From an uncultured Acidobacteriota bacterium (GTDB lineage: Bacteria; Acidobacteriota; Thermoanaerobaculia; UBA5066; DATFVB01), in the NCBI GenBank assembly GCA_963813155.1, contig CAWEYG010000001.1, positions 79,058 through 143,057 on the forward strand: a stretch of 64,000 nt of DNA, written 5' to 3'. This document shows, piece by piece, positions 6,421 to 60,100 of this stretch. The notes under the pieces were generated by a model. The model saw nothing but the letters and a program-made list of their open reading frames with translations, was not told where the DNA came from and did not search any database. Every line of letters starts with the position of its first letter. Within the stretch, counting starts at the first letter, position 1. A program made the position numbers and the translations under genes.

Positions 6421-6497
6421 AACCTATTCCAGAGTCAGGCATCGCTCTTGCAATCTCCCCCGACGACTGCCTCGGAAGGGGCGAAAGGAGCGCTGCA

Positions 6498-6666: not shown

Positions 6667-7934
<1,268 letters not shown>

Positions 7935-7938
<4 letters not shown>

Positions 7939-11064: not shown

Positions 11065-11076
11065 AATGACCCCCCA

Positions 11077-11100
11077 GAACATTTTGACAGGGATTCCGTT
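11077..11100 (+). promoter_or_regulatory. ECF-type promoter (GAAC-16nt-CGTT) upstream of the ECF sigma gene
   Basis: aGAACattttgacagggattcCGTTtc ends 16 nt before the ATG. Typical autoregulatory ECF promoter architecture. Confidence 0.4.
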
Positions 11101-11115
11101 TCTGATTGCGAGGAC

Positions 11116-11742
11116 ATGATGAACGAGACGCCCGACCAGACACTCGCCGCCGCCTGCCGCGAAGGGGACGAAAAGGCGTGGGACGCGCTGCTCGATCGGT
11201 ACGGGCGCCGGGTGTACGGGATCGCGTACCATTTCACCCTTCGAAAAGAGGACGCCGAGGAGCTCTCCCAGGAGATCTTCCTGAAAGTCTTCGAGAATCT
11301 CCACCGGTTCGACGGCAACTTTTCCTTCGGGGCCTGGATCGTGTCCCTCGCGCGCAACCTCTGCATCGATCACTACCGCCGGCGAAAGAGGGAAAAATCG
11401 TTCGTGCACGTGTCGGACGAAGCCGTGTTTCCCCTTCTCACCGCGACGGACGACCCCGCGCGCAATGCGCTCCAGAAAGAGCGCACGAAACTGCTCTTCG
11501 AGGCGATCGCGGAGCTTCCGGAGGACCTGTCGGAAATCCTGATCCTCCGCGACCTCGACGGGCTCGCCTATGAGGAAATCGGCGCCGCGCTGGACCTGCC
11601 GGAAGGCACGGTCAAGTCGCGCCTCTTCCGCGCCCGGGCGGAGGCCGCCCGGATCATTCGGGTCAAGACCGAGCGCCGGCCGCGCAACGGCGGATGGAAA
11701 CCGGTCACTCTCGCGCTCGCGCTGACGGCGGTGGCGTCGTGA
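11116..11742 (+). CDS. ECF (sigma-70 family, group 4) RNA polymerase sigma factor
   Basis: Region 2 YGRRVYGIAYHFTLRKEDAEELSQEIFLKVF...FSFGAWIVSLARNLCIDHYRRR. Region 4 ILILRDLDGLAYEEIGAALDLPEGTVKSRLFRARAE. Confidence 0.9.
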   Translation: MMNETPDQTLAAACREGDEKAWDALLDRYGRRVYGIAYHFTLRKEDAEELSQEIFLKVFENLHRFDGNFSFGAWIVSLARNLCIDHYRRRKREKSFVHVSDEAVFPLLTATDDPARNALQKERTKLLFEAIAELPEDLSEILILRDLDGLAYEEIGAALDLPEGTVKSRLFRARAEAARIIRVKTERRPRNGGWKPVTLALALTAVAS

Positions 11743-23426: not shown

Positions 23427-23441
23427 AGGCATAAGCTTTGC
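23427..23441 (+). promoter_or_regulatory. possible sigma54 -24/-12 element (AGGCAT-N5-TTGC)
   Basis: aGGCATaagctTTGCT with GG/GC at the canonical 12-nt register, 57 nt upstream of ATG 23498. Confidence 0.3.
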
Positions 23442-23497
23442 TCGGGACTGGCCGTAGGATTTCGTGATTGGATGATGAGAGTACGAAAGGACGCTGC

Positions 23498-26465: not shown

Positions 26466-26840
26466 ATGGTTCAGCCTCGCGAATTCCGGTATTCCGACAT
26501 CCCCTCTGACCCGCGCGAACTTGCGAAGGACTGCGAGATCTCGTTCTTTCGCGCGTCCGGGCCGGGCGGGCAGCATCGAAACAAGACGGAAACGGCTGTC
26601 CGGGTCGTGCACCTGCCCACCGGCGTCATCGCGGCCGCGGTCGAGGAACGCAGCCAGTCTCGCAACCGCGAGCGGGCATTCGAGCGCCTTCGGGAGAAGC
26701 TCATCCGAAAATTGAAGCCGCGAAAGCCGCGCCGGGAAACGAAAGTCCCGCGGTCGGCGAAGGAAAAACGGCTCGAAGCGAAGATCCGGCGGAGCCGGAC
26801 GAAAGAATTGAGGTCTATTCCCCGAGCTTCTCTCGATTGA
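26466..26840 (+). CDS. arfB: alternative ribosome-rescue factor ArfB (peptidyl-tRNA hydrolase, GGQ motif)
   Basis: GPGGQHRNKTETAVRVVHLPTG followed by a basic C-terminal tail (KLKPRKPRRETKVPRSAKEKRLEAKIRRSR). Confidence 0.85.
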   Translation: MVQPREFRYSDIPSDPRELAKDCEISFFRASGPGGQHRNKTETAVRVVHLPTGVIAAAVEERSQSRNRERAFERLREKLIRKLKPRKPRRETKVPRSAKEKRLEAKIRRSRTKELRSIPRASLD

Positions 26841-28176
26841 GCCCGTAGTGCTCGAGCTTCTTGTAGAGGTTCGACCGCGGCGTTTGAATCGTCTCGGCCG
26901 TCCGGGAAACGTTCCAGTTGTTCTCGCGGAGTTTTGCGAGAAGAAATTCGCGCTCCGTGTATTCCTTGAAGTCCGCGAGCGTCGACATGCGCGACGCCTG
27001 CCCGGCGAGCTCCCTCGGCGAAAACTGGGATTCGGAAGGAATTTCCGCGGCCGTGACGGGATCGGCCTCCGTCATGATCAGAACGCGCTCCACGAGATTC
27101 CGGAGCTCGCGCACATTTCCCGGCCAGGATCGCCCGGCCAGGGCGTCGAGCGCGCTCTTGTGGAACGTACGCCGGCGAACGCCGTTGCGCTCCGCGTACA
27201 CGGCGGCGAAATGCTCGACGAGCGGCACCGCGTCCTCCGGCCGTTCGCGCAGGGGGGCGATGTGCAGCGGCACGACGTTCAGGCGAAAATAGAGATCTTC
27301 CCGAAACGATCCCTTTCGGATCTCGTCAACGAGGTTCTTGTTCGTGGCCGCGATCACGCGGACCTTCACTTTCTGAGTCTTCGATTGGCCGACGGGCTCG
27401 ACCTCGCCCTCCTGCAGCACCCTCAGGACTTTCGCCTGGGCGCGAGCCGACATGTCGCCGACCTCGTCCAGAAAGATCGTCCCTCCGTCGGCCTCGACGA
27501 ACTTCCCGATCTGCTTGCGGACCGCTCCCGTGAACGACCCCTTCTCGTGGCCGAACAACTCGGATTCGATGAGCTCCTCGGGAATCGCCGCGCAGTTCAC
27601 CGTCACGAACGGCCCCTGGGACAGCCGCGAGAGCCGCTGGACCTGGCGCGCGAGGAGCTCCTTGCCGGTTCCCGACTCCCCCGTGACGAGAACGGTCGCG
27701 TCGGACGGGGCCGCCCGCGCGACCTGCTCGTTGAGCCTGCGCACGGAGTCGCTCGCCCCGACGAAAGAATCTTCGATCTCGACTCGGCGCTTGAGCCGGA
27801 CGTTCTCGCGGGCCAGATGGTCGCGCGACACCGCGTTCCGAAGAGAGACGAGCAGGCGCTCGCGCTGAAGGGGCTTCTCGAGGAAATCCACCGCGCCTCG
27901 CTTCGTGCACTCGACAGCCGTCGCGATATCTCCGTGCCCGGAGATCATCAGAACCGGTGGAGGATTCTCGAGCCGCTGGATCTCGTCGAGGGCCTCCATC
28001 CCGTCCTTTCCGGGCATCTTGATGTCGAGCAGCACCGCGTCGGGCCGCCGGGCGTCGATTTCCGAAAGCCCGGAGACGGCGTCCGGAGCGGACGCCGTCT
28101 CGTAGCCGTCGTATTCCAGGATCATCTTGATCGCCTGACGCACCGACGCGTCGTCGTCGACGATGAGAACCCGCAT
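26815..28176 (-). CDS. sigma54-dependent response regulator, NtrC/ZraR family (REC + AAA+ + Fis HTH)
   Basis: MRVLIVDDD...LLDIKMPGKDG. GESGTGKE. ESELFGHEKGSFTGA. GGTIFLDEV. C-terminal HTH TAETIQTPRSNLYKKL. The 3' end overlaps arfB convergently by 26 nt. Confidence 0.9.
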   Translation of the reverse strand: MRVLIVDDDASVRQAIKMILEYDGYETASAPDAVSGLSEIDARRPDAVLLDIKMPGKDGMEALDEIQRLENPPPVLMISGHGDIATAVECTKRGAVDFLEKPLQRERLLVSLRNAVSRDHLARENVRLKRRVEIEDSFVGASDSVRRLNEQVARAAPSDATVLVTGESGTGKELLARQVQRLSRLSQGPFVTVNCAAIPEELIESELFGHEKGSFTGAVRKQIGKFVEADGGTIFLDEVGDMSARAQAKVLRVLQEGEVEPVGQSKTQKVKVRVIAATNKNLVDEIRKGSFREDLYFRLNVVPLHIAPLRERPEDAVPLVEHFAAVYAERNGVRRRTFHKSALDALAGRSWPGNVRELRNLVERVLIMTEADPVTAAEIPSESQFSPRELAGQASRMSTLADFKEYTEREFLLAKLRENNWNVSRTAETIQTPRSNLYKKLEHYGLNREKLGE

Positions 28177-28196: not shown

Positions 28197-29744
28197 CTAC
28201 TCGCCGACTTTGACGATCGCGAAGAACGAGAACGGACGCTGGCCGAAGCGCCGCACGTAAAAACGCAGGTAATCGCCCTTCTTCGCGTCGCGGACGACCC
28301 GCGAGAGCTCTTCGGCGGAAGCGACCTTGTGGCCGTTGACTTCGGTGATCACGTCGCCTTCCGCCAGCCCGGCATCGTTCGCCGCCGACACTTCGGAGAC
28401 TCCCGTGACGAGGACGCCCGCGACGCTCGGCTCGATCCGGTAGTACTGGCGCCCCTGCGGCGTCAGGTCCTGGACGGAGAGGCCGATTTTTTCCTTCGCG
28501 CCGCCCTCGTTCTCGGGAGCAGCCGTGTCGTTGGATGCCTGGTCGCCCCGGCGCTCCCCGAGCTCGACGGTGAGGTCCTGCATCCTCCCTCCGCGGTTGA
28601 CGGCGAGGCGCACCCGGGCGCCCGGAGGCCTGCCCGACACGTACGAGATGAGGTCCTGCGTCGTGACGACCTCGCGGTCGTCGACCTTCAGGATGACGTC
28701 GCCGTGCTGAACGCCCGCCTTGTCGGCCGGCTGGCCCGGCTCGACCGACTCCACGAGAGCGCCGTTCATGTCCTTGAGGCCGAACGCTTTCATGTTGTCT
28801 TCGTCGAGGTTGCGGATGTTCACTCCCAGGAAGCCGCGCGTGACCTTGCCCTTCGTCTTGAGCTGGTCGAGGATCGACCGGGCCGTGTTGATCGGCACCG
28901 CGAACCCGATGTTCTGGGCCGGACGGTAAATCGCGGTGTTGATGCCGATGACTTCGCCCTCGAGATCGATGAGCGGCCCGCCCGAGTTGCCGAAGTTGAT
29001 CGCGGCGTCGGTCTGGATGAAATTTTCGAACGAGTTCGTGTTCGGATCCAGCGTCAGGTTGTGCCGGCCTTTGGCCGAGACGACGCCGACGGTCACCGTC
29101 TTGTCGAATGCCCAGGGATCGCCGATCGCCATCACCCAGTCGCCGACGCGAATCTTGTCGGAATCCCCGAGCGAAATCGGCGTGAGGCGCTCCTTCGCGT
29201 CGATCTTGATGAGCGCGATGTCGGTCGCGGGATCGGTGCCCACGACCTTCGCCCGATAGGTGTGCTGGTCGCCGACTTTGACCTCGATTTTCTGACCGCT
29301 CTCGACGACGTGGTTGTTCGTCAGGATGTACCCGTCCTGCGAAATGATGAAGCCGGACCCTCCGGCCTCTTCCTTGTGCTCCTGTTGCTGGTCCTGGCCC
29401 TGCCCCGGACCGCCCTGGCCCGGATGCGGAAATCCGAAGAAGAATTCGAACGGATCCTGTCCGTCTCCTCCTCCAAACGGGTTCTGGCCCCCGGAACGGC
29501 GGCGAGGCCCCTTCACGATGTCGGTCGAAGTGATCGAAACGACCGACGGCAGGGCTTCGGCGGCCACGTCGGAAAAAGATGGCAGGTTCCCGGCCGAGGT
29601 CGCCCGTGTCGGCGCGCTGTGCGGCGACTTCTGAGCCAGCGTCTCCGGGGTCCAGTTCGTCGAACTGGCCAGCACGACTCCGAAAATGATCGCCCCCGCG
29701 ATGAGGGCAAAAAAGGAGAGTTGTCTTTTCGCACTCGCGTTCAT
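28197..29744 (-). CDS. degP: Do/DegP/HtrA-family periplasmic serine endoprotease (trypsin domain + 2 PDZ)
   Basis: Catalytic triad context TNNHVV, DIALIK, GNSGGPL. Two PDZ domains. Signal/TM at the N-terminus. ATG 29744 with GGGGG RBS. The track TTG at 29768 is probably not the start. Confidence 0.9.
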   Translation of the reverse strand: MNASAKRQLSFFALIAGAIIFGVVLASSTNWTPETLAQKSPHSAPTRATSAGNLPSFSDVAAEALPSVVSITSTDIVKGPRRRSGGQNPFGGGDGQDPFEFFFGFPHPGQGGPGQGQDQQQEHKEEAGGSGFIISQDGYILTNNHVVESGQKIEVKVGDQHTYRAKVVGTDPATDIALIKIDAKERLTPISLGDSDKIRVGDWVMAIGDPWAFDKTVTVGVVSAKGRHNLTLDPNTNSFENFIQTDAAINFGNSGGPLIDLEGEVIGINTAIYRPAQNIGFAVPINTARSILDQLKTKGKVTRGFLGVNIRNLDEDNMKAFGLKDMNGALVESVEPGQPADKAGVQHGDVILKVDDREVVTTQDLISYVSGRPPGARVRLAVNRGGRMQDLTVELGERRGDQASNDTAAPENEGGAKEKIGLSVQDLTPQGRQYYRIEPSVAGVLVTGVSEVSAANDAGLAEGDVITEVNGHKVASAEELSRVVRDAKKGDYLRFYVRRFGQRPFSFFAIVKVGE

Positions 29745-36968: not shown

Positions 36969-37894
36969 GCGGGGCGCTCTTCTCCAACGGAGCCCTCCTT
37001 CTCCTCGACAAGCCGGAAGGAATCACCTCGCACGACGCCGTCGAACGGGCGCGGCGCGCGACGGGCGTCAAGAAGATCGGCCACACGGGAACGCTCGACC
37101 CGATGGCGACCGGCCTGCTCGTGCTCTGCTGCGGCCGCGCCGCGCGGCTCCAGGGCTTCTTCACCGGCCTGCCGAAGACCTACGAGGGAACGATCACGCT
37201 GGGCCGCGCGACGACGACCTACGACGCGGCGGGCGAGACGACGGCCGAGCTCGCGTCGCCGCCGGCATTCTCGAAGGAACAGATCGAACGCGCCGCGTCG
37301 GAATTCCGCGGGGAGTTCGAACAATCGCCGCCGCCGTACTCGGCCAAGAAGGTCGGCGGCCGAAAGTTCTACGAGATGGCGCGGAAGGGCGAGGCCGTTC
37401 CGTCGGCGCCGAAGCGGGTCGTCGTCACCCGCTTCGACCTCGAGGACGGCGGCGGCAACGACCGGAAGTTCGTTCTCTCGTGCTCTTCGGGCACCTACGT
37501 CCGCTCGATCGCGCACGAGCTCGGGGCCCGGCTCGGCTGCGGGGGCCACCTGTCGGCGCTTCGCCGGTCGAGGGTCGGGGACTTCGCGATCGAGGACGCC
37601 GTCCGGCTCGACGCGTTCGAGGAAATGGACGAGACGGCGCGAATCGCGGCGCCCCACGCGATTCCGCTCGCGGGCATCCCGTTCCCGTTCCCCCGGATGA
37701 CCGTCGCCTCGCTCGAGGCCTGGAAAATCCGGCGCGGACAGTCGGTCCCCGCCCGTGTCGAGGGACCCGACGGCGGCTGGGTCAGCCTCCTCTCGGCGGA
37801 CGGCGAACTGCTGGCCCTGGGGCAGATAGCCCCGATCGGGACGGGTCGGATCGCCATGATCCGGCCCCGGATCGTGCTGGCGGAAGAGGGCTGA
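36965..37894 (+). CDS. truB: tRNA pseudouridine(55) synthase TruB
   Basis: LLLDKPEGITSHDAVERARR...KIGHTGTLDPMATGLLVLCCG, catalytic Asp in the HTGTLDP context. PUA-like C-terminus. GTG overlaps the rbfA stop. Confidence 0.9.
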   Translation: MSGALFSNGALLLLDKPEGITSHDAVERARRATGVKKIGHTGTLDPMATGLLVLCCGRAARLQGFFTGLPKTYEGTITLGRATTTYDAAGETTAELASPPAFSKEQIERAASEFRGEFEQSPPPYSAKKVGGRKFYEMARKGEAVPSAPKRVVVTRFDLEDGGGNDRKFVLSCSSGTYVRSIAHELGARLGCGGHLSALRRSRVGDFAIEDAVRLDAFEEMDETARIAAPHAIPLAGIPFPFPRMTVASLEAWKIRRGQSVPARVEGPDGGWVSLLSADGELLALGQIAPIGTGRIAMIRPRIVLAEEG

Positions 37895-37971
37895 ATCTGA
37901 TACGCTTTCTGGCTGTTGAAAAGTGAGAGTTTGAGTATAGAGAGGCTCCTGAAAGAGCCACGGAGGAACCG

Positions 37972-38247
37972 TTGAGCGTCACGGCATATCGGGAAACGAA
38001 ACCCGAGATCATTCACGATTATCGAACCCACGAACAGGACACCGGATCGCCCGAAGTTCAGATCGCCCTGCTCTCGAATCGAATCGCCTACCTGACCGAC
38101 CATTTCAAGTCCCACGCCAAGGATCACCATTCGCGGCGCGGGTTGCTGATGCTGGTCGGGCGGAGGCGGCGCCTTCTCGAGTACCTGAAGAAGAAGGACG
38201 GCGAGCGGTACCACCGTCTGATCGATCGTCTCGGTCTCCGAAAGTAA
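37972..38247 (+). CDS. rpsO: 30S ribosomal protein S15
   Basis: [78 protein letters not shown] start. Confidence 0.9.
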
Positions 38248-38327
38248 GAACGTTCCGGCCAGCACTCCCCGCGCCGTTTCGGCGGAGGGCGCACGTGTCT
38301 GCCGACAGAGAGATGAAGGAATGAACA

Positions 38328-40517
<2,190 letters not shown>

Positions 40518-40547
40518 TCGAACCACCGCGTCTTCTTCAATTTACAC

Positions 40548-40578
40548 GCCGGGCGAGAGCCCGGCGTTTTTCTTTGGA
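40548..40578 (+). terminator. intrinsic terminator after pnp (GCCGGGC-GAGA-GCCCGGC + TTTTTCTTT)
   Basis: 7-bp GC stem with GAGA tetraloop and U-tract 30 nt after the pnp stop. Confidence 0.6.
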
Positions 40579-40588
40579 TGCCGCGACT

Positions 40589-40603
40589 TGGCACGCGCCG
40601 TGC
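40589..40603 (+). promoter_or_regulatory. sigma54 promoter (TGGCAC-N5-gTGCT) upstream of the DUF4398 lipoprotein/OmpA gene pair
   Basis: cTTGGCACgcgccGTGCTc. Perfect -24 element and conserved -12 GC. Lies 37 nt upstream of ATG 40641. Confidence 0.5.
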
Positions 40604-40640
40604 TCATCCCATGGATTGGATTCGAAAGAAGGAGATCTCC

Positions 40641-41018
40641 ATGAAACTCATCCCGACTTCGCTCGTCGGCTCGCTCGCGATCTTCGCATGCGCCTGCGCC
40701 TCCAGCGGCCCTCCGGTCAGCAATACCGAGATTGCGCAGGCGGAAACGGACATCCGGTCCGCCGAAAACGCGACCGCCACCCAGCACGCGAGAGACCTTC
40801 TGGACCGCGCCCGCGGCGATCTCGCGGCCGCGCAGCGCGAATGGCAGGATCGCCACTGGAACGAGGCCCGGCTGCGCATCGCCGAGGCCCGAGCCGCGGC
40901 GGGCGCCGCGGAATCCAAAGCGCGCGCGACTGCCCTTGAACAACAGGCCAACGACGTCCGCCGCGAATGCGACGACATCGAGCGGCGCACCCGCGAGCTG
41001 GCGCAACAGCCCCGGTAA
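40641..41018 (+). CDS. DUF4398-like lipoprotein (125 aa)
   Basis: Lipobox LAIFAC. Ala/Arg/Glu-rich helical repeats typical of DUF4398 proteins found next to OmpA-family genes. RBS AAGGAGA. Confidence 0.65.
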   Translation: MKLIPTSLVGSLAIFACACASSGPPVSNTEIAQAETDIRSAENATATQHARDLLDRARGDLAAAQREWQDRHWNEARLRIAEARAAAGAAESKARATALEQQANDVRRECDDIERRTRELAQQPR

Positions 41019-41042
41019 AAGACGAAAGCAAAAGAGGAAATC

Positions 41043-42203
41043 ATGACGATCAAGAACATCGGTCTCGCAGGGCTCTTCGCCGCGACGCTCTTCTATGCGG
41101 CCGGCTGCGCGAGCACCCGGGGGGAATCGCCGGTTCTCCGCGACGCGAGGTTGGCGCTTCAGGACGCGCGCGACGCGGGCGCAGCCCAGGCCTCCCCCGA
41201 CCTGTTCAATCGGGCGTCGAGCGATCTCGCCTCCGCCCAGAGGGAATGGAACTCGGGCCACGAAGATCTGGCGATGCACTACGCTCAGCTTGCCGACAGC
41301 GAAGCGCGCAACGCCGAATTCCGAGCGAAGGGACTTCGCGCGCAGGCGGCCCTGGACGAACAGAGGAGCCGCCGCGCCCAGCTCGAGGCGTCCCTGCACG
41401 AGACCGAACAGCGCCTGATCGCGCAGCGCGCGCGGTCCGAAGAGGAGCGTCACCGGCTGGAAGCCGAGCTGCAGGCGCGCGAAGACCAGGCGCGACTGCA
41501 ATCGGAGGCGCAGGCCCGCGAGGCAGCCCAGAGGGCGGCCGAAGAGCGCCAGAAGGTCCTTCAGGCCCAGCTCGAAGCCGAACGGGCCCGGTCGGCGGAG
41601 CAGCAGCGACAGGCCGAGATTGACTCGCTGAAGGCGCAGCTCGACGAGCAGACGCAGGCCGCGGAAGCGGCGCGAAAAGCGGCCGCGGACCAGAATGCGA
41701 GACTCGAAGACGCCCGGCGGCAGGAGGAAGAACGGCGAAAGACGGCCGAAGAAGCGACCCGGAGACAGGCCTCGACCCAGAAAGGCCTTCTTGCCCGGCT
41801 TCAGGAGCTCGAGAAATCCACCCGCGTTGAGGCGCGAGGAATCGTCGTCACGCTCCCGGGCAGCATCTACTTCGCGACGAATCGAGCCGACTTGCAGCCG
41901 GCCGTCCGGGAGCGGCTGGCCGACATTGGAAGGGCGCTTGCGGCCGCGTCCGACCGTCACATCCTGATCGAAGGACACACCGACTCGACCGGCCGTGCCG
42001 CCTACAACCTCCAGCTCTCCGCGCTGCGCGCCGAATCCGTCAAGGCGGTCCTCGTCGGCAACGGGGTAACTCCCGAGCGCATCGAAACCCACGGGTACGG
42101 TTCGACGAAGCCCGTGACGGACAACGCGACGGCCTCCGGCCGGAGCCAGAACCGGCGCGTCGAAATCGTCGTCCAGGGGGAATCGGCAGCCGCGCGTCCG
42201 TAA
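41043..42203 (+). CDS. OmpA-family lipoprotein with DUF4398-like N-terminal region and long coiled coil
   Basis: Lipobox FYAAGC. About 200-aa Q/E/R/A-rich coiled coil. C-terminal OmpA/MotB peptidoglycan-binding domain (ILIEGHTDSTGRAAYNLQLSALRAESVKAVL..NRRVEIVV). Confidence 0.85.
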   Translation: MTIKNIGLAGLFAATLFYAAGCASTRGESPVLRDARLALQDARDAGAAQASPDLFNRASSDLASAQREWNSGHEDLAMHYAQLADSEARNAEFRAKGLRAQAALDEQRSRRAQLEASLHETEQRLIAQRARSEEERHRLEAELQAREDQARLQSEAQAREAAQRAAEERQKVLQAQLEAERARSAEQQRQAEIDSLKAQLDEQTQAAEAARKAAADQNARLEDARRQEEERRKTAEEATRRQASTQKGLLARLQELEKSTRVEARGIVVTLPGSIYFATNRADLQPAVRERLADIGRALAAASDRHILIEGHTDSTGRAAYNLQLSALRAESVKAVLVGNGVTPERIETHGYGSTKPVTDNATASGRSQNRRVEIVVQGESAAARP

Positions 42204-42233
42204 ACGGCCCTCGTTCTCCCGCGCGCCCGAGAA

Positions 42234-43265
42234 ATGCGACAATCGAGCGTGTTCTCAGCCCCGCTCGCCGAGACGGCCCGCTCGAACCTGAAATCCGTGA
42301 TTCGGGACGCCGTACGGCATCCCCCCGATTGCCCGGCGCTCCTCGTCTTCGATCGCGATTCGCCGCTGGCAAGGCTCCTGGCGACGGCCTACGAGACCGC
42401 CCTGCCGGAAGCGCGGGCCATCGAGTTCTCCGAAACGAAGAGCGACGAGGTTCTCGGAGCGGCGGCCGCGCTCTCCCCCGGCGACCTCGTCGTTCTCGTG
42501 GAGTCTTCCCGATTCCCGCTCGCCGCCCACCGCTTTCGGGTGGAACTGTTCGAGAAGGGCCTGAAAGTCATCGAGCATCCGCACCTGGGCCGAATCCAGG
42601 ACTCCGAGCTCGCCGCTTACGTCGATTCGCTGGCCTACGACGCGACATACTATCGGGCTGTCGGGCCCGAATTGAAAAGGCGCATCGACCGCGCGACGGG
42701 CGCGAAGCTCGTGGGGGCCTCGGGTCCGCTCGTCTACGACGGCCCGCTGGAAGCCGCGAAGCTCAACATCGGCGACTACACCGGCCAGGTCAATATCGGC
42801 GGCCAGTTCCCGATCGGAGAGGTTTTCACGGAGTCCCGGGACCTCGCGAGCGTCTCCGGAACGGTCGAGCTCTTCGCGTTCGGCGCGGCCGACTTCTCGG
42901 TTGTCGCGCCCGAATCGCCCATCCGGCTGCGGATCGAGGCCGGAAGAATCGCGGCCGCGGAAAGTGCTCCTCGGGATTTCGATTCGATTCTAGCCGAGAT
43001 CCGTGACAGTGAAGGCGAGGTCTGGCTGCGCGAGCTCGGCTTCGGGATGAACCGGGCGTTCACGCGGGAGCGGCGCGTCTCGGACGTCGGCTCGTACGAG
43101 AGGATGTGCGGCATCCACCTCTCGCTCGGGGCCAAGCATGCGATCTACGCGAAACCCGGCTTCTCGAAACGTCGCGTGAAGTACCACGTCGACGTCTTCG
43201 CGGCCGTGGAGCGCGCGGAGATCGATGGCGAGACTGTATACGCGGACGGGAAGTACGTGGTCTGA
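42234..43265 (+). CDS. hypothetical protein (343 aa); weak resemblance to M29-family aminopeptidase C-terminal region
   Basis: Complete ORF with no TM or signal peptide. C-terminal IHLSLGAKH...YHVDVF is reminiscent of the metal-binding motifs of thermophilic aminopeptidases. Low certainty. Confidence 0.45.
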   Translation: MRQSSVFSAPLAETARSNLKSVIRDAVRHPPDCPALLVFDRDSPLARLLATAYETALPEARAIEFSETKSDEVLGAAAALSPGDLVVLVESSRFPLAAHRFRVELFEKGLKVIEHPHLGRIQDSELAAYVDSLAYDATYYRAVGPELKRRIDRATGAKLVGASGPLVYDGPLEAAKLNIGDYTGQVNIGGQFPIGEVFTESRDLASVSGTVELFAFGAADFSVVAPESPIRLRIEAGRIAAAESAPRDFDSILAEIRDSEGEVWLRELGFGMNRAFTRERRVSDVGSYERMCGIHLSLGAKHAIYAKPGFSKRRVKYHVDVFAAVERAEIDGETVYADGKYVV

Positions 43266-43277
43266 AGCTCTCGCTCG

Positions 43278-43410
43278 GTCCGCGAGAGCGCGGGTGGCCC
43301 GGGGCGAGACTCCCTTTTGCCGCTCGCGACGCGGGTATAGCAAAGTCTTCAGGCTCGCGGCGAGCGGAAAAGAGGAGCGAGTCCCGCGACAGGACCCGCG
43401 CTCGAGCGGA
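43278..43410 (+). repeat. palindromic intergenic repeat, copy 1 of 3 (about 130 bp, REP/MITE-like)
   Basis: Shares about 85-90% identity over about 125 nt with 44681..44812 (same orientation) and 63702..63828 (inverted). Conserved core GGGTGGCCCGGG..GGAGA.CCCTTTTGCCGCTCGCG.CGCGG...TAGCAAAGTC...CGC.GCGAGCGGAAAAG.GG.CGAGTCCCG.GACAGGACCCGC. Arms are mutually complementary (long imperfect hairpin). Confidence 0.8.
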
Positions 43411-48422: not shown

Positions 48423-48604
48423 GTCACTCCTCTCTGGAATCGCATGAACAATAACTCCCGCTAGCGCGCGGATCAACAACGCGCGGGAGAAACCGCGACG
48501 TCTACGAGCTGTGGCCGTCAGCATTTGCGGCGAGTCGCTCAACTCTGGATTTTACCCGAGCGGTCTCGCGTCGCGCCCCGATCTGGCCGAGCTTTTGCTG
48601 TAAG

Positions 48605-51600
48605 GTGAACAGGGAAAACATGCCTTTTTCGAGACGCGCGAAACTCTGGAGCCACCTGGGGAAGGAACAGCCGATCCGGGCGGAGCTGTACGGACGCGAG
48701 CGTCTGGACGCCGAAGCGGCTCGACTGGCGTCCGCCCACCTCGGCAGCCTTCGGGCGGGGGGGAGAGGCCCGATGCGGGGCCGCCTCGAGGAGAACGACC
48801 GCCAGCTCCGGATGATTCACGCGTCGATCGTCGCGGGGGCCAAGCGCGGCGAGACCATCTCTCCGGCTGCCGAATGGTTCCTCGACAATTTCCATCTCGT
48901 CCTCGACCAGGTCCGCGAAGTCCGTCAGGACTTTCCCGCGCACTACGAGCGGGAGCTTCCGCACCTTACCCGGGGAGAGCTCGGCGGTTACCCGCGCGTC
49001 TACTCGATCGCCACAACGCTCGTCGCCCACACCGACAGCAGCCCCGACATGGAGACGCTCAAGAATTTCCTCGACGCGTACCAGGCGGTCTCTCCGCTGT
49101 CGATCGGCGAGCTGTGGGCGATTGCCGTCGCGCTCCGCGTCGCGCTGATCGAGAACCTCAGGCGCCTCGCCGGCCGCATGGAAGTCGCGCGGCGCGAGCG
49201 CGCAAAGGCCGACGCCCTCACCGAACGGGTGCTGTCGGCGCTCGAAACGGCGACCGGCCTTCCGGAGCGGGAGGCGATCGCCGAAGCCGTGTTGAAGGCT
49301 CCCGAACGGCGAGAGTTGAGAATCAATCAAACGTTTGCCGTGCGCCTCATTCAGCGCCTCCGAGACGTCGATCCGTCGCTCTCGACGGTACACCGGTGGA
49401 TCGAAGAAGGCCTCGCGGCCCAGGGACTCACGGTCGAAAGCGCGGTGCTGGCCGAGCACCAGAGGCAGACGACCGCGCAGGCGACGATCGCGAACATCAT
49501 TTCGAGCATGCGGCTCTTCTCGCAGGCCGCATGGCCGGATTTCGTGGAGTCTGTCAGCGCCGCCGAGCGGGTGCTCGAGGAGGACCCGGCGGGAGCCTAT
49601 CCGCACCAGGATTTCGAGACCCGGGACCGCTACCGGCACGTCCTCGAAGCGCTCGGGAACAGGGATGGCGCGCGCGAGCTGGCCGCCGCGCGCCGCGCCG
49701 TGGAGCTGGCGAGCGAGGGAGCCGCGCCCCGCGAACGCCACGTCGGCCACTACCTCGTGGACGCCGGCCGTCCGATCCTCGAGCGCGAGCTGGGCGTGCG
49801 CCCCGGGCTCGCGGCTGCCACCCGCCGTCTCGTCCTTCGCTCCCCTGCGGCGTTCTACATCGGGTCGATTCTCCTGATCACCGCGGCGATGGAGGCGATT
49901 GCAGGCGCCTACGTCCGGGCCCACGGAGCGGGCTGGACGATGCTCGCCGTGTCTCTCCTCCTGTCCCTGATCCCGGGAACGGAGCTCGCGCTCTCGATCG
50001 TGAATTTTTCCGTCAACTTCCTGATTCCTCCCCGCCGGCTTCCGAAGCTCAAATGGCGCGACGGCATCCCGGAGGACTTCCAGACGCTCGTCGCGGTCCC
50101 GTCTTTTCTCGGCGACGAGGAGGAAATCCGCGAGCTTCTGTCTTCACTCGAAATCCGCTCCTACGCCAACCCCGACCCGAACCTCCGCTTTGCTCTCCTG
50201 ACCGACTTCGGGGACGCGGACACGGAGACACTGCCGGACGAAGACCGGCGTCTTCAGCTGGCCGAGGACGGAATCCGGGATCTCAACTCCCGGGCCTCAT
50301 CGCCCGGGCGATTCTGGCTTCTCCACCGAAAGCGGCTGTGGAACGCGGCGGAGGGGAAGTGGATGGGGTGGGAGCGAAAACGCGGAAAACTGACGGAGCT
50401 CAACCGCCTCCTTCGCGGCCGCGGACCCACGAGTTTCGAGGTCGTGACCGCCGAACCGGCTGCCCTGGCGAAAATCCGGTTCGTTCTCACGCTCGACGCC
50501 GACACGCGGCTTCCCCGGGAGTCCGCGAGCGCGCTCGTGGGGACCCTCGCGCACCCGCTGAACCTTCCGCGGTCGGATGCGAAGACCGGGCGCGTCGTCG
50601 CGGGCTGCTCGATCGTCCAACCGCGCGTCTCCATCACTCCGGAAAGCGCGAATCGCTCTCCGTTCGCCCAGATCTCCTCCGGCCACGCGGGGATCGACCC
50701 CTACACGACCGCCGTCTCCAACGTCTACCAGGACCTCTTCGGCGAGGGCAGCTTCACCGGAAAAGCAATTTACGACGTGGACGCGTTCGAGTCCGCGCTC
50801 GCCGGGCGAATCCCGGAAAACGCGATCCTCTCGCACGACCTGCTCGAGGGCTGTCTCGCCGGCTCGGCTCTCGCAACCGACATCGAGATCTTCGAAGACC
50901 ATCCCTCGTCCTACGACGTCTACACGCGCCGGCAGCACCGCTGGATCCGCGGAGACTGGCAGATCGCCCGGTGGCTCGGCCGCAGTGTGCCGATGGAAAG
51001 AGGAATCGAGGCGAACCCGCTTTCGGCAATTTCCCGATGGAAGATCCTCGACAACTTGAGGCGGAGCCTCCTCGCACCGGCCCTTTTCCTCTGGCTCGCC
51101 GCCGCCTGGCTCTTCCTCCCGGGCTCTCCCTTTTTCTGGACGACTCTCGCGATGTCCGCGATCGCTTTCCCGATCATCTTTCATCTCGCCGAAGGCCTCA
51201 CCATCCACGCCCGGGGCGTTCCCTGGACGAGCCAGTTCTGGAGCGTCTGGGGAGATCTGCTGGACAATTGCGCGCAGTTCGCGCTTCGCGTCGCCTTCCT
51301 TCCCCACCTTGCGGAGGTTTCGATCGACGCCGCCAGCCGGGCCCTTTTCCGGCAGCTGATCTCCCACCGGCGACTCCTGGAGTGGACGACGGCGGCCGCC
51401 GCCGAAAAGGACCGCGTCTCCTCGGTCGCCGGCTACGCAAGGCGAATGGGGAGAAGCTGGGTGGTGTCCGCAGCGCTCGCCGGGGCGATCGTGGCGATCG
51501 CCCCGCGCCACCTGCCGGCCGCCGCCGGGTTCCTCCTCCTCTGGCTGATCTCGCCGGCGCTCGCCGCGGGCGTGAGCCGGCCGATTCGCCGGGAGCGACG

Positions 51601-54600
51601 CGAGCTGTCCGCCGAGGACGTGCTCGAGCTTCGCGAAACCGCTCGCCTGACGTGGAGATTCTTCGAGAAGTTCGCGAACGCGGAAGAGCACGATCTCCCC
51701 CCCGATAACTATCAGGAGGACCCCGAGCCGCGTGTCGCGCACCGGACCTCTCCGACGAACATCGGGTTCTCTCTTTTGTCGGCCGTCGCGGCCTTCGATT
51801 TCGGGTACGTGGGGATACGCGACCTCGTCGAACGCCTCGAACGGACGCTCGGCGTCGTGGAATCGCTCCCGCGGCTTCGCGGGCATCTCTACAACTGGTA
51901 CGACACGACGACCCTCGCACCCCTTCCGCCTCGCTACGTCTCGTCGGTCGACAGCGGAAACCTCGCGGCAAGTCTCATCGCGCTCAAGCAGAGCTGCCTC
52001 GAGCTGGCCGAGAGCTCGCCCCGACCTCCCTGGAGGGACGGGCTCGCCGATCTGATCCGTCTCGTTCAGAAGGAGGTCGATGCGATCCCCGCCTCGGGCG
52101 TTCGGACGGAGGCGATCCCGCTGCGCCAGCTCCGAAATCAGGTGCTCGCGCTCGGAGCGCTGCCCGCCTCGCCGAATGCGCTCGAAAGCGAAGTTCTCGC
52201 CGAAATCGAACAGAGCGGCTCGGCCCTCGAAGACGCCGTGCGGGCGCTCGCCCAGGAGCACGCGGAGATCCCGCTCGCCCAGCTGCTCGGCCTCCTCGGC
52301 GACGTGGCGCGGCAGGCCCGGTCTCTCGCGCGCGATTCCGAAGGCCCCGCCGACGCGCCGGCGATCGAACAGCGGCTCCGGGGGATCGCGAATCGCGCGC
52401 AAAAATTCGTGGACGAGACAGACTTCTCGTTTCTCTTCGACGGGGAAAGAAAGGTCTTTTCGATCGGCTGGAACGCGCAGATGGAGCGTCTGGACAAGTC
52501 GTACTACGACCTCCTGATCTCCGAGGCTCGGCTGACGAGCTTCTGCGCGATCGCCAAGGGCGACGTGCCGACGGAGCACTGGTTTCGCCTGCAGAGGCCG
52601 TTCGCCGTTTCTTTCAAGCGTCCGGTCCTTCTGTCCTGGTCGGGAAGCATGTTCGAGTACCTGATGCCCCTGATCCTCCTCCGGTCGTATCCCGACACGC
52701 TGCTGCACGAGACGTGCACAGCGGCGGTCGAGGCGCAGGTGCAGTACGTCCGGGGAAAGAAGATTCCCTGGGGCGCGTCGGAATCCGCCTACAACGCCCG
52801 GGACCTGCACCTCAACTACCAGTACGGCCCGTTCGGCGTGCCGGAGCTCGGCCTTCGCCGCGTTGCGCCGGACGAGCTCGTGATCTCTCCCTACTCGACA
52901 TTCCTCGCGCTGCTCGCGGACCCTTCGGGAGCGCCGGAAAACCTTCGTCGGCTCGCGGCCGAGGGAGCGCGCGGAGACTTCGGCTTCTACGAGTCGATCG
53001 ACTACACGCCGAGGCGCCTGCCCCCCGGCTCGACACGCTCCGTCGTCAAAGCGTTCATGGCCCACCACCAGGGGATGATCCTTCTCTCGATCCACAACGC
53101 CGTCCTCGCGGATCGCATGCGAAACCGGTTTCACTCGGACCCGGCAGTCCAGGCCACCGAGCTGCTGCTGCAGGAGCGGATCCCGCGCAACACGTCCGCG
53201 CTCGCCGGTTCGATCGTCGCCCAGGTGGCGGCTGGCCGGGTCGTCCGCGAGGAAATCGCGATCCCGACCCGGCGGTTCGATTCGCCCGATTCCTCGACGC
53301 CGCGCAGCCAGATTCTCTCGAACGGTTCCTACTCCGTGCTCGTGACGGTGGCCGGTTCCGGATTTTCCCAACGGGGCGGCCTGGCGGTTACCCGGTGGCG
53401 TGACGACCCCACGTCCGATTCCTGGGGCTCCTGGATCTACCTGCGCGACGTGAGAAGCGGCCAGCGATGGTCGGCAGGGCATCAGCCGACGCTCCGGCGC
53501 GCGAAGAGATACGAGGCGAAGTTCTCCGAGCACAAGGCTGAATTCCTGCGCATCGACGAGGGCATCGAAACGCGCATGGAGGTGATCGTCTCCGCGCAGG
53601 CGGACGTGGAGATCCGGCGAGTCACGCTGACGAACACCTCGACGAGGGCGCGCGACGAGCGGGACATCGAAGTGACGAGCTACGCCGAAATCGTCCTCGC
53701 GCCGCAGGCTGCCGACATCGCCCATCCCGCCTTTTCGAAGATGTTCCTCGAGACGGAGTGGACTGGCGGGAGGCTGCTCTGCAGCCGCCGGCCGCGCTCG
53801 CCGGAGGACAAGCCGGCGTTCGCCGCGCACGCGATGGCGGTGTCGGGCACGAGCCTCGGGGGCGTGCAGCACGAGACCGACCGCGCCCGCTTCCTCGGCC
53901 GCGGGCGGTCTCCCCGCGCCCCGGCCGTGCTCGTCGAGGATCGCCCGCTCTCCGACACGACGGGCGCAGTTCTCGACCCGATCTTCTCCCTGCGCCATCG
54001 CGTTCGCGTGCCGGCGGGCCACAGCGTCCAGATCGCGTTCGTGACCTCGGCGGCCGACACGAGGGAAGATGCGCTCGCCCTCGTCGACCGATTCAAGGAC
54101 CCCGCGCTGTTTGACCGCGAATCCTCTCTCGCGTGGATGCGGTCGCAGGTGCTGTTGAGGCACCTGAACATCACGAGCGACGAGGCCCAGCTGTTCCAGC
54201 GCCTCGCGACCCGCGCCTTCTACAACGACCCGAGCCTGCGGCCCGCCTCGGAGCTCCTGGCCCGCAACACGGGCTCGGCCCGAGCGCTCTGGGCCCACGG
54301 CATCTCCGGGGACCTTCCGATCGTGCTCGTCCGAATCGCCGACATGGAGGAGATCGATCTCGCGCGGCAGCTCCTGCGGGCGCACGAATACTGGAGCCTC
54401 AAGGGGATCACGGTCGATCTCGCGATCGTCAACGAGAGCGGGTCCGCGTATCTTCAGCCGCTCCAGGACCAGCTCAATGCGATCCTGGCGGCGTCTCCTT
54501 CGCGCCTCTTCGCGGGCAAGGCCGGGAGGAATCTTTCTTCGCAGCGCGGACCAGATTCCCGAGCAGGAGCGAATCGTGCTGGAGACGGCCGCCCGGGCGG

Positions 54601-57149
54601 TCCTCGTCGGGTCGAAGGGAACTCTCTCCGATCAGGTCCAGCGGATTCCTTCGAGCGAGATCCTGCCGGCCGCATTCGCGTCGACCGCACCGATCACGCC
54701 GCCGGCCGGCAACCCTCCCCTCGAGACCGGCAAGCTCTCGTTCTTCAATGGAATCGGCGGCTTCTCCGCGGACAGGCGCGAATACGTGATCGTTCTCCTC
54801 GAGAATCAGTACACCCCTTCGCCGTGGTCCAACGTGGTGTCGAACCCGTCTTTCGGCTTTCTCGTCACCGAATCCGGCTCGGGCTGCACCTGGGCGGAAA
54901 ACAGCCACGAAAACCGCCTCACGCCCTGGTCCAACGACCCCGTGACGGATCCGTCCGGCGAGGCAATCTACCTGCGCGACGAAGAGAGCGGCGAAGTGTG
55001 GACGCCGACGCCCCTTCCGATTCGGGACGCCGATCCGTATGTCTGCCGCCACGGCCAGGGCTATTCTCGATTCCTCCACCGGAGAAGCGACATCGAAAGC
55101 GACCTCACGATGTTCGTCCCGGTCGCCGACCCCGTGAAGGTCCTCCGTCTTCGCCTGACGAACCGGTCGGCGTCGCCCCGCAAGATTTCGGCGACGTTCT
55201 ACGCCGAGTGGGTTCTCGGGTCGGAACGGTCCGCGAGCGCGAGATTCGTCGTGACGGAGCCCGACGCGGACCTGCAGGCGATCTTCGCCCGAAACTCCTT
55301 CAACGCCGATTTCGCCTCGCGCACGGCATTCGCGCGAGCGAGCGGAGCGCTGATGTCCTGGACCGCCGATCGCCGCGAGTTTCTGGGGCGAAACGGCCAC
55401 CTGTCGGACCCCGCCGGGCTCCGGCGCGCAAGCCTGTCCGGCCGGAGCGGAGCGGCGCTCGATCCGTGCGCGGCCCTCCAGACCGCCGTCGATCTCGCTC
55501 CGGGAGAGTCGCGCGACGTCGTTTTCCTGCTCGGGGAAACGGACGGCCGCCCGGCCGCGGCCGGGCTGATCCGCCGCTACGGCGAGCCGGGCGGAGCGGA
55601 GACGGCGCTGCGCGAGAGCACCGCGGCGTGGGACAGGCTGCTCGGCGCGGTCCAGGTGCGGACCCCCGACCTCGCCCTCGACCTGATGGTCAATCGCTGG
55701 CTCCTCTATCAAACGCTGTCGAGCCGGGTCTGGGGACGGACCGGCTTCTACCAGTCGAGCGGCGGGTTCGGCTTCCGGGACCAGCTCCAGGACGTCACGG
55801 CGCTGCTGGCGTGTGCGCCGGAGCAGGCGCGCGAGCAGATCGAACGGGCGGCGTCCCGCCAGTTCCCGGAGGGGGACGTGCAGCACTGGTGGCACCCGCC
55901 GTCCGGGCGCGGCATCCGCTCCCGATGTTCCGACGATCTTCTCTGGCTCCCGTTCGTCGCGGCGCATTTCGCCGAGGTCACCGGCGATTCGACGATCTGG
56001 GATGCGGACGCGCCGTTTCTGGACGCGGCGAAGCTCGGCTCGGACGAGGTCGAGGCCTATCAGGAGCCGCGCGTGTCCGCCGAGCACGCGACGATCTTCG
56101 AGCACTGCGCGCGCGCGATCGACCGCAGCCTCGTCGTCGGAGAGCACGGCCTCCCGCTGATCGGCAGCGGGGACTGGAATGACGGCTACAACCATGTCGG
56201 GATCGGCGGCAAGGGCGAGAGCGTCTGGCTCGGATGGTTCCTCCTCGCCGTCCTCCAGAGCTTCCAGCCTCTCTGCGAGGCTCGGGGCGACAAAGGCCGA
56301 GCCGACCGGTATCGCAAGCACGCCGCCCGGCTCAAGTCCGCGATCGAAGCCCACGGATGGGACGGCGACTGGTATCGCCGGGCCTATTTCGACGACGGCG
56401 CGACGCTCGGCTCCGCCGCCGACGCCGAGTGCCGCATCGATTCGTTGTCGCAGACGTGGGCCGTCCTCTCCGGAGCGGGAGACAAGACGCGCACGGCGCG
56501 CGCGATGGTGGCCGTCCACGAATACCTCGTGCGCCGGGAGGACGGGCTCGTGCTGCTGCTGGCGCCGCCGTTCGACCGTTCGCCCCGCTATCCCGGATAC
56601 ATCCAGGGCTATCCCCCCGGAGTCCGGGAGAACGGGGGCCAGTACACCCACGCCGCGGCCTGGGCGGTGATGGCGTTCGCCCAGCTCGGCGACGGCGACC
56701 TCGCCTCCGAGCTCTTCTCGTACCTGAACCCGATCTCTCCGACGAGCACCCGGGCGGGCCTTCACAAATACAAGGTCGAGCCCTATGTGACCGCGGGCGA
56801 CGTCTACTCCGTACCGCCGCTGACGGGCCGCGGGGGATGGACCTGGTACACCGGATCGTCCGGATGGCTGTACCGGGCCGGCGTCGAATCGATCCTCGGC
56901 TTCCGGATCGAGGGAAAGCACTTCACGATCGACCCCTGCATCCCGCGGAGATGGCCCGGCTTCGAGATGGAATACCGCGACGGCGACACGCTGTACAAGA
57001 TCCGCGTCGAGAACCCGAAGGGCGTCTGCCGCGGCGTCGAGAGCGTCGAGGTGGACGGAGTCGCCGTTCCCGCGAAGCGGGTCTGCCGCGAGCACGACGC
57101 GAAGACCCACGAAGTCGTCGTGAGGCTGGGGTCCGGGTCCGCCTCTTGA
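48605..57149 (+). CDS. cyclic beta-1,2-glucan synthase-like giant glycosyltransferase/glycoside phosphorylase (about 2,850 aa; NdvB/ChvB/Cgs architecture); +1 frameshift at about 54524-54529
   Basis: N-terminal cytoplasmic region. GT domain with DxD-like TLDADTRLPRES and QHRWIRGDWQ. Multiple TM segments. Two GH94-like (cellobiose phosphorylase-like) alpha/alpha-toroid regions (GWDGDWYRRAYFDDG, GGWTWYTGSSGWLYR). The frames 48605..56182 and 54477..57149 join at LFAGKAG/GIFLRSADQ. Start is GTG 48605 or ATG 48620. Confidence 0.8.
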
Positions 57150-58905: not shown

Positions 58906-58922
58906 CCGGCACCTCCCTTGCA
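58906..58922 (+). promoter_or_regulatory. sigma54 promoter (cGGCAC-N5-TTGCA)
   Basis: ccGGCACctcccTTGCAcc, near-consensus -24/-12, 53 nt upstream of ATG 58976. Confidence 0.5.
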
Positions 58923-58975: not shown

Positions 58976-60100
58976 ATGAACCGGACATTAACGAGAACGC
59001 GCCATCGAGGAGCGGGGATCGCTTTCGCCGCGCTGCTGACGCTCGCGGCCGGGACGGCGTCCGCGCAGCGTTACATCCAGCACAACCTCGTCTCGGACGT
59101 GCCGTCGCTCGCGCCTCGCACGGATCCGAATCTCGTCAACGCGTGGGGAATCGCGCACAGCCCCACCGGCCCGATCTGGATCGCGAACAACGGCAGCGGG
59201 ACTTCGACCGTCTACGACGAGAACGGACTCCCCGTTCCGAACAAGACCGCGCCGCTCGTCGTCGCGATTCCCGAAGGGACGGCCAACACGGAGGGCGGCG
59301 TCCCGACCGGAACGGTTTTCAACGGGACCGGGCAGTTCGTCGTTTCGGCGAATGGAAAGAGCGGCTCGGCCGTTTTCCTCTTCGCCGGCGAGGACGGGAC
59401 GATCTCCGGCTGGAACCCGGGGGTGAACCCGACGCAGGCGATTCTCGGGGTCGACAACTCGACGAGCGGAGCGGTGCACAAGGGAATTGCCCTCGGAGCG
59501 ATGGGCTCGAACAATCTCGTGTACGTGACGAACTTCAATTCCGGTAATGTCGATGCGTACGATTCGAGCTTCGCGTTCGCGTTCTCTTTCACGGATTCGT
59601 CCCTCACGGCCCTGGGTTACGCGCCATTCGGCATCGCGAACATCAACGGAAACCTGTTCGTGAGCTTTGCCCAGCAGGACGCCGACAAACACGACGATGT
59701 GGCCGGCCCGGGTCACGGCTATGTCGACGAGTTCGACACGAGCGGAACACTGATCAAGCAGTTCGCCGCGCAGGGAACTCTCAATTCGCCGTGGGGAATG
59801 ACGCTCGCGCCGGACAACTTCGGCCATTTCTCCGGGGCGTTGCTCGTCGGAAACTTCGGGGACGGCCGGATCAACTCTTTCGACCCGTCGACCGGGGCAT
59901 TCCTCGGGCAGATGGCAAATCCGAACGGCTCGCCGCTCGCGATCGACGGGCTCTGGGGCCTCGCGTTCGGGAACGGTACGCAAGGAGGAGGCGCGGCCAA
60001 CCAGCTCTACTTCACGGCCGGGCCCGAGGGCGAAAGCCACGGCCTCTTCGGAAGAATTCAGGCGATTCCGGGACTCGCGCAGATGAACGGACGCAACTGA
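58976..60100 (+). CDS. secreted repeat-containing hypothetical protein (possibly TIGR03118-like beta-propeller family)
   Basis: Signal peptide MNRTLTRTRHRGAGIAFAALLTLAAGTASA. Repeated Gly/Asn-rich beta-strand motifs (NAWGIA, GSGTSTVYDENG, NSPWGMTLAP, GLWGLAFGNG). RBS GGAGAAAGGGAG. Confidence 0.6.
   Translation: MNRTLTRTRHRGAGIAFAALLTLAAGTASAQRYIQHNLVSDVPSLAPRTDPNLVNAWGIAHSPTGPIWIANNGSGTSTVYDENGLPVPNKTAPLVVAIPEGTANTEGGVPTGTVFNGTGQFVVSANGKSGSAVFLFAGEDGTISGWNPGVNPTQAILGVDNSTSGAVHKGIALGAMGSNNLVYVTNFNSGNVDAYDSSFAFAFSFTDSSLTALGYAPFGIANINGNLFVSFAQQDADKHDDVAGPGHGYVDEFDTSGTLIKQFAAQGTLNSPWGMTLAPDNFGHFSGALLVGNFGDGRINSFDPSTGAFLGQMANPNGSPLAIDGLWGLAFGNGTQGGGAANQLYFTAGPEGESHGLFGRIQAIPGLAQMNGRN

Follow-up and report, generated by a model that had tools for sequence, protein, structure and literature searches.

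The closest described relative of the gene pair studied here is PA3691-PA3692 (lptF, lipotoxin F) of Pseudomonas aeruginosa, which has the same layout: a small DUF4398-type gene followed by a gene for a lipoprotein made of a DUF4398 head, a helix and an OmpA-like domain. Both envelope proteins, PA3691 and LptF, are induced together (PMC7685553, PMC4153424), and the expression of their genes depends on AlgU, a sigma factor of the sigma-22/sigma-E type, as part of the cell-wall stress stimulon and the lipoprotein-transport stress response (PMC3372973, PMC7685553). PMC4153424, citing Damron et al. 2009, places LptF in the outer membrane. Judging from the gene numbering and from the gene order in two Pseudomonas loci (L005 and L007), PA3691 would be the small upstream gene. 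The sequences fit this published dependence on AlgU: in five Pseudomonas lptF-type loci (L005, L007, L008, L020 and L029), the region some 130-170 nt ahead of the small gene holds a conserved AlgU/sigma-E-type element, cTGAAC-N19-TC, and a sigma-54 motif was absent upstream in all five.

Other envelope-protecting proteins are produced from sigma-54 promoters, as in the enterobacterial PspF/pspA-E and ZraSR/zraP systems, which respond to envelope damage (PMC4987338). More generally, sigma-54 has been tied to the genes of the cell exterior, and almost all diderm bacteria that have an LPS outer membrane possess it (PMC3162934). In the Psp and Zra systems the activator gene lies beside its target and the enhancers are known, whereas neither was found close to the gene pair described here, and the proteins are unrelated. 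As for the larger protein of the pair, its C-terminal domain closely resembles that of Pal, YiaD, YfiB, PA0833 and PA1041; these proteins, however, have short or glycine-zipper linkers in place of a DUF4398 head and a helix of about 180 residues. Braun's lipoprotein Lpp offers a different likeness, as both it and, by prediction, the larger protein of the pair are lipid-anchored helical rods that reach from a membrane to the peptidoglycan. The rod length of Lpp sets the spacing of the envelope. Lpp is a trimeric coiled coil of 58 residues that is covalently attached to peptidoglycan, whereas the helix considered here is about three times longer and leads into a predicted non-covalent OmpA-like binder.

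The Thermoanaerobaculia, a class of Acidobacteriota, are widespread in soil and sediment and mostly uncultured, and to our knowledge almost nothing is known about their transcriptional control. Our literature search returned no report of sigma-54 promoters in Thermoanaerobaculia or for DUF4398 genes, and DUF4398 itself was mentioned in passing only, in three papers. We analysed a 64-kb stretch of DNA, referred to as the window, in which the following features surround the proposed promoter:

38328-40517, + strand: pnp (polynucleotide phosphorylase), with two Pfam RNase_PH domains, KH, S1 and PNPase
40546-40577, + strand: intrinsic terminator of pnp, consisting of the hairpin ACGCCGGGC-GAGA-GCCCGGCGT (40546-40567) and then TTTTTCTTTG
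40589-40594, + strand: -24 element TGGCAC of the putative promoter, with its GG at 40590-91
40600-40604, + strand: -12 element GTGCT of the putative promoter, with its GC at 40602-03
40615-40640, + strand: predicted 5' untranslated leader, placed by standard sigma-54 promoter geometry
40641-41018, + strand: gene for a 125-aa DUF4398 lipoprotein (signal peptide, lipobox, Pfam DUF4398 at 28.5 bits)
41043-42203, + strand: gene for a 386-aa OmpA lipoprotein (lipobox Cys22, DUF4398 at residues 32-106, helix 74-256, OmpA-like domain 260-378)
42234-43265, + strand: 343-aa ORF with no Pfam or NCBIfam match, 30 nt past the OmpA gene

The window gene pair shows the LptF-type architecture, with lipobox, DUF4398, OmpA-like domain and a small DUF4398 lipoprotein gene ahead. 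A protein search with the Pseudomonas homologue gave no match named LptF, and the link was made through NCBIfam, where the Pseudomonas homologues from L005 and L007 score 480-484 bits on the LptF equivalog model NF053613 (cutoff 400). Their alignment with the 386-aa protein spans the whole of the latter and shows 29% identity. On the same model the window protein reaches 111.4 bits and its orthologues in L001 and L002 reach 106 and 129 bits, all below 400, so that the window protein is a distant relative of LptF and not a member of that family; it falls below the cutoff on every NCBIfam equivalog model. Compared with LptF it is about 125 residues longer, all of them in the helix. The two modules also differ in promoter class, as the homologous window module is preceded by a sigma-54 motif instead of an AlgU-type element.

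Both window proteins have a signal peptide ending at the lipobox cysteine (...FACAC|ASSG and ...YAAGC|ASTR), which aligns with the L-A-G-C of homologues, and both score above the gathering cutoff of 27.9 bits for DUF4398 (PF14346), the 386-aa protein with 34.9 bits and the 125-aa protein, marginally, with 28.5 bits. The 386-aa protein also matches OmpA (PF00691) with 87.3 bits (cutoff 27.2). The preliminary description of this DNA had assigned lipoboxes and DUF4398-like repeats to both proteins and an OmpA domain to the second, all of which held. It had further placed a coiled coil of about 200 aa before the OmpA domain; the long helix is indeed there, but the length was slightly generous, as AlphaFold2 (17 homologues, mean pLDDT 81) predicts an unbroken helix of 183 aa (residues 74-256), the first 30 or so residues of which belong to DUF4398. 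In the same model, short helices (30-44, 47-50 and 52-70) precede the long helix and the OmpA-like domain follows it. Foldseek and PDB matches of the 386-aa protein covered the OmpA-like domain only (PA0833, YfiB and YiaD), with PDB E-values of 1e-21 and target-normalised TM-scores of 0.82-0.86, and a PDB sequence search with the 125-aa protein gave no match. The residues GHTDS...LS.LRA...NRRVE are invariant in the family of the 386-aa protein, and D314, R329 and N370-R372 of the predicted OmpA-like binding site are invariant in the 17 homologues. A total of 1669 homologues of the 386-aa protein were found, mostly from Thermoanaerobaculia; source names such as 'Thermoanaerobaculia bacterium' among them assign the window to this class. 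The 125-aa protein aligns with the first 130 or so residues of the 386-aa protein at 32% identity (E 1e-9), and by this alignment it is a paralogue of that part of the larger protein.

The gene pair follows pnp, the last gene of a rimP-nusA-infB-rbfA-truB-rpsO-pnp cluster, on the same strand and after a gap of 123 nt. The pnp hairpin has a 9-bp stem with 8 GC pairs, is followed by the T-run TTTTTCTTT, and is the sole terminator-like site with a strong stem on the + strand in 37800-43400. The putative sigma-54 promoter core, TGGCACgcgccGTGCT (40589-40604, + strand), begins 21 nt past this terminator; its context in the window is cTTGGCACgcgccGTGCTc, and a longer stretch reads ...cacgccgggcgagagcccggcgtttttctttggatgccgcgacTTGGCACgcgccGTGCTcatcccatggattggattcgaaagaAGGAGatctccATG. 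The GG and GC are exactly 10 nt apart, which is the canonical sigma-54 spacing. The flanks of TGGCAC, a T before and a G after, agree with YTGGCACG, and against the extended consensus YTGGCACG-N4-TTGCW the sequence cTTGGCACGcgccGTGCT has a single mismatch, the G that opens the -12 element in place of the first consensus T of TTGC. The pattern TGGCAC-N5-KTGCW has this one exact match on both strands of the 64 kb, where shuffled sequences lead one to expect 0.01. With up to one mismatch to TGGCAC-N5-TTGCW, the window contains three sites including the core (0.33 expected), and none of 100 shuffles gave three. The core is intergenic, has the orientation of the downstream gene and ends 36-37 nt before the ATG at 40641. 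The sequence thus bears out what had been described of this site, namely a perfect -24 TGGCAC and a conserved -12 GC, 37 nt before the first lipoprotein gene and directly past the pnp terminator, and it supports the interpretation as a sigma-54 promoter.

If the C in the GC of the -12 element is numbered -12, transcription would start near 40615. A Shine-Dalgarno sequence, AGGAG, lies at 40630-40634, 6 nt before the ATG. A search of 40300-40800 against Rfam returned nothing significant, and no sigma-70-like promoter was seen in 37800-43400. The space between terminator and start codon is filled by the sigma-54 motif and lacks a GAAC-N16-19-TC element.

Orthologous loci were collected by a metagenome scan in which the alignment was limited to the family-specific N-terminus, giving 80 loci; three loci from genomes and three long contigs supplement this set. 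A scan of genome contigs with full-length alignments drew generic OmpA peptides, and the true orthologues among the matches listed were L001-L003. The small genes were detected by tblastn with the small proteins already found. Wherever the upstream sequence of a locus was long enough, a small DUF4398 lipoprotein gene stands directly 5' of the OmpA gene; the gene pair is thus conserved. We then searched the 150 nt before the small gene for GG-N10-GC with at most two mismatches to TGGCAC-N5-TTGCW. Conservation at orthologous loci, on which the preliminary description had let its proposal depend, was evident: 47 of 60 non-identical upstream regions contain such a site, compared with a background of 0.006 per region (23 sites in 515,548 positions) when both strands of the rest of these loci were searched. 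Positions that the search had left free are nearly invariant in the 47 sites, with C after GG in 45, A next in 45 and T before GC in 46.

The motif occurs in 9 of 12 protein clusters, defined by at least 70% identity of the small protein, with a family consensus of [T/G]GGCA[C/T]-N5-[A/T/G]TGC[A/T] that ends 13-120 nt before the start codon. In orthologues with a TGGCA- or GGGCA-type site this distance is 26-120 nt; in one of the nine clusters (L088/089, L093-096) the sole match is TGGTCC-N5-TTGCA, which ends 13 nt short of an uncertain start codon that lacks a ribosome-binding site. Spacer, flanks and upstream neighbour all vary around the conserved motif. Only the window, L081 and L161 have pnp upstream; in L001 and L163 the neighbour is a trmFO-like gene and in L002 a methyltransferase-like gene, both of them divergent. 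This variation implies that the pair needs a promoter of its own.

The three syntenic loci (window, L081 and L161) provide a phylogenetic footprint. TTGGCAC/T-N5-GTGCT, the terminator stem and the ribosome-binding site are kept in all three, whereas the leader and the DNA from the pnp stop codon to the hairpin have diverged. L161 has gccct as its spacer in place of gcgcc, and its motif lies 10 nt farther from the terminator. Within the otherwise diverged leaders, the three loci have a GATTCGA(A/C)A block (window 40618-40640) in common, just 5' of the ribosome-binding site.

Three of the 12 clusters do not have the motif, so sigma-54 control is not universal for the gene pair. They are a lower-GC clade of six loci (L137, L145, L153, L156, L159 and L160; 55-57% GC), the related single locus L150, and L092, which has an extra small ORF upstream. 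A few loci (L082/083, L115/118, L128 and L146) have a homologous but degenerate site. The lower-GC clade and L150 have another conserved block, GAATGTTTGG ... GAGTGCGGTTTGGG, about 140 nt before the small gene.

The lower-GC clade could be taken to mean that the match in the window is fortuitous or vestigial, and that the lipoprotein genes are expressed by read-through from pnp or from an unrecognised promoter of the sigma-70 or ECF type. Such a reading can draw on the shared strand and short gap between pnp and the lipoprotein genes, as intrinsic terminators are often leaky, and on the control of PA3691-lptF by the ECF sigma factor AlgU (PMC3372973, PMC7685553) through GAAC-N19-TC and without a sigma-54 motif. 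However, the pnp terminator is strong, neither a sigma-70-like site nor a GAAC-type element was detected in the ranges given above, and a fortuitous match does not account for an exact GG-N10-GC register that recurs far above background in front of the pair whatever gene lies upstream. Because the register is conserved where the pair is oriented divergently from its neighbour, read-through or another sigma factor is an inadequate explanation, and we regard it as very improbable.

We also considered that the element is a palindromic site for a conventional transcription factor (GCACG-CGC-CGTGC) and not a sigma-54 promoter. The window core is in fact a perfect 5+3+5 inverted repeat that is paired in the RNA fold too, and several orthologues read GCAT-N5-ATGC, which is likewise palindromic. 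Yet TGGCACtcttgATGCA, TGGCACcgtgaATGCA and GGGCACgacgaTTGCT have at most three complementary positions, and the invariant part, GGCA(C/T) followed at a constant distance by TGC, is the sigma-54 consensus, of which a partial dyad is an inherent feature. As the dyad is not conserved but GGCA and TGC are kept, this explanation fails, and we give it very little credence. Hardly any weight attaches to a sigma-54 promoter that mainly serves a regulatory leader, a small RNA or downstream metabolic genes, since, even though the lack of a terminator-like site after the OmpA gene means that transcription could run into the 343-aa ORF and the DUF72 and msrA genes, the two lipoprotein genes alone are conserved after the motif, later genes vary among loci, and the predicted leader is just about 26 nt long and has no Rfam match.

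The sigma-54 promoter reading is thus retained, and its downstream boundary is a separate matter. On the + strand no terminator-like site was found between the OmpA gene and the 343-aa ORF, and this ORF may be co-transcribed with the lipoprotein pair. This ORF does not belong to the conserved module, since L001 and L162/L163 have other genes downstream.

We next examined the window for sigma-54 machinery and for further sites of the same type. A gene for sigma-54 itself (rpoN) is not in the 64 kb, and no ORF with an RpoN box was seen in the window or in the related loci gathered. Indirectly, the two activator genes listed below and the wide occurrence of sigma-54 among LPS-diderm bacteria (PMC3162934) speak for its presence in this organism. 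The relevant features are as follows:

26815-28176, - strand: NtrX-like activator, REC-AAA+(GSFTGA)-HTH, with the sigma-54-contact motif GSFTGA
about 6667-7900, - strand: second REC-AAA+(GSFTGA)-HTH activator, with the sigma-54-contact motif GSFTGA
6437-6452, + strand: sigma-54-like site with 2 mismatches, preceding a small hydrophobic peptide (MLWTIFVILLILWLLG...)
23427-23442, + strand: sigma-54-like site with 2 mismatches, preceding an exported 344-aa protein without family match
29832-29817, - strand: sigma-54-like site TGGCATcggcgTTGCT, preceding the HtrA/DegP-type protease gene
28197-29744, - strand: HtrA/DegP-type protease gene (TIGR02037, 478 bits), with the NtrX-like activator gene 20 nt after it
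48584-48599, + strand: sigma-54-like site with 2 mismatches and a weak -24 element, TGGCCG, preceding a cyclic-glucan-synthase-like gene
58907-58922, + strand: sigma-54-like site CGGCACctcccTTGCA, 53 nt before the gene for a secreted TIGR03118 protein
58976-60100, + strand: gene for the secreted TIGR03118 family protein (381 bits; NCBIfam model name PEPCTERM_chp_1)

A scan of the window with up to two mismatches gave eight sites, six of which fall between genes, in the orientation of the gene that follows and some 20-75 nt ahead of its start codon. Taking some 50 genes with 120 nt upstream of each, such zones would occupy roughly 5% of strand positions, and by this rough estimate it is very unlikely that six of eight sites lie there by chance. 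Besides the core, the other five precede genes for small hydrophobic-peptide, exported or envelope proteins, including htrA/degP. The regulator of the PEP-CTERM system is a sigma-54 activator. The glucan-synthase-like gene (GT2, glucoamylase-like, GH94) appears as two frames, 48455-56182 and 54168-57149 (+), which overlap by about 2 kb and may reflect a frameshift or an assembly error in one gene of about 2900 aa. The second activator gene adjoins a histidine-kinase-like gene (7935-8651, - strand), beyond which lie a hybrid kinase gene and an ECF sigma factor gene (11065-11742). A third regulator, FHA-AAA+-HTH (695-2695, - strand), matches Sigma54_activat with 107 bits; it was dropped as evidence for sigma-54, as it has APAGRG where the GAFTGA loop belongs and may not act through sigma-54.

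The htrA gene and the NtrX-like activator gene could form a self-regulated sigma-54 envelope module. The same pair lies next to rimP-nusA in other Thermoanaerobaculia (L165-L167); before htrA, L165 has a perfect sigma-54 site, L166 a weak one and L167 none. The NtrX-like activator is a candidate regulator of the lipoprotein operon as well. No motif was found to be shared between the lipoprotein promoter and the htrA or TIGR03118 promoters, and a search of 84 related loci turned up no activator gene within 3-4 kb of the lipoprotein pair. Within 300 nt upstream of the window promoter the only inverted repeat is the terminator hairpin, and no enhancer-like repeat was found; terminator and -24 element are only 21 nt apart.

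Two types of upstream element were observed in orthologous loci. One subgroup only (L129, L139, L141, L143, L148, L115 and L118) has a near-perfect 17-bp palindrome, CAGGTCC-GCG-GGACCTG, with a variable central base. It sits 20-45 nt ahead of the -24 element, in the gap that separates the sigma-54 site from the divergent gene, and could be a regulator-binding site. In several groups AT-rich boxes, GATTATCC and GAATAAGAG, occur upstream; they look like -10 regions of the divergent neighbour genes.

Overall, comparative sequence analysis makes it, in our view, highly probable that 40589-40604 is a genuine promoter of the sigma-54 (RpoN)-dependent type, and that it serves an operon of two genes or possibly more. 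According to our working model, the pnp terminator would stop transcription coming from the ribosome and RNA-processing cluster, and sigma-54 RNA polymerase would bind the -24 TGGCAC and -12 GTGC just past it to form a closed complex. This complex would stay silent until remodelled by an ATP-hydrolysing enhancer-binding protein, presumably encoded elsewhere in the genome. Transcription would then begin near the predicted start and yield a leader of about 26 nt with a strong ribosome-binding site, and the predicted products would be two paralogous lipoproteins sharing the DUF4398 helical head. In the larger one, a helix of about 180 residues, which would measure about 27 nm if straight, would lead into the OmpA-like, non-covalent peptidoglycan binder. 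With its lipid anchor, long helix and OmpA-like domain, the 386-aa lipoprotein would link a membrane to the wall at a fixed distance. The small lipoprotein probably pairs with the large one through the helical head. A tethering role of both proteins, as proposed in the preliminary description, is suggested by their domain content, and the inducing signal of the promoter is probably related to the envelope.

ECF sigma factors such as RpoE and AlgU serve in the envelope-stress response of Proteobacteria. Two classic types of sigma-E regulon member, the LptF-like pair and HtrA/DegP, are preceded by sigma-54 promoter motifs here, and on this basis one may speculate that sigma-54 has replaced the ECF sigma factor in the envelope stress response of Thermoanaerobaculia, with the strongly conserved NtrX-like regulator directly after htrA as master activator of this envelope regulon. 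We think this broader scenario rather improbable.

The lipoprotein promoter adds a new example to a familiar type of element, and the mechanism itself is ordinary and not new. Its value lies in where it is found. As a conserved and highly probable sigma-54 promoter, it would give a firm regulatory anchor across many lineages of Thermoanaerobaculia and place a widespread, uncharacterised lipoprotein pair (DUF4398; DUF4398-helix-OmpA) in the sigma-54 regulon. It would also document a sigma-factor switch for a homologous envelope module, with sigma-54 here and AlgU in Pseudomonas. Together with the putative sites before htrA, the TIGR03118 gene and genes for other exported proteins, the lipoprotein promoter would support the published idea that sigma-54 controls the cell exterior.
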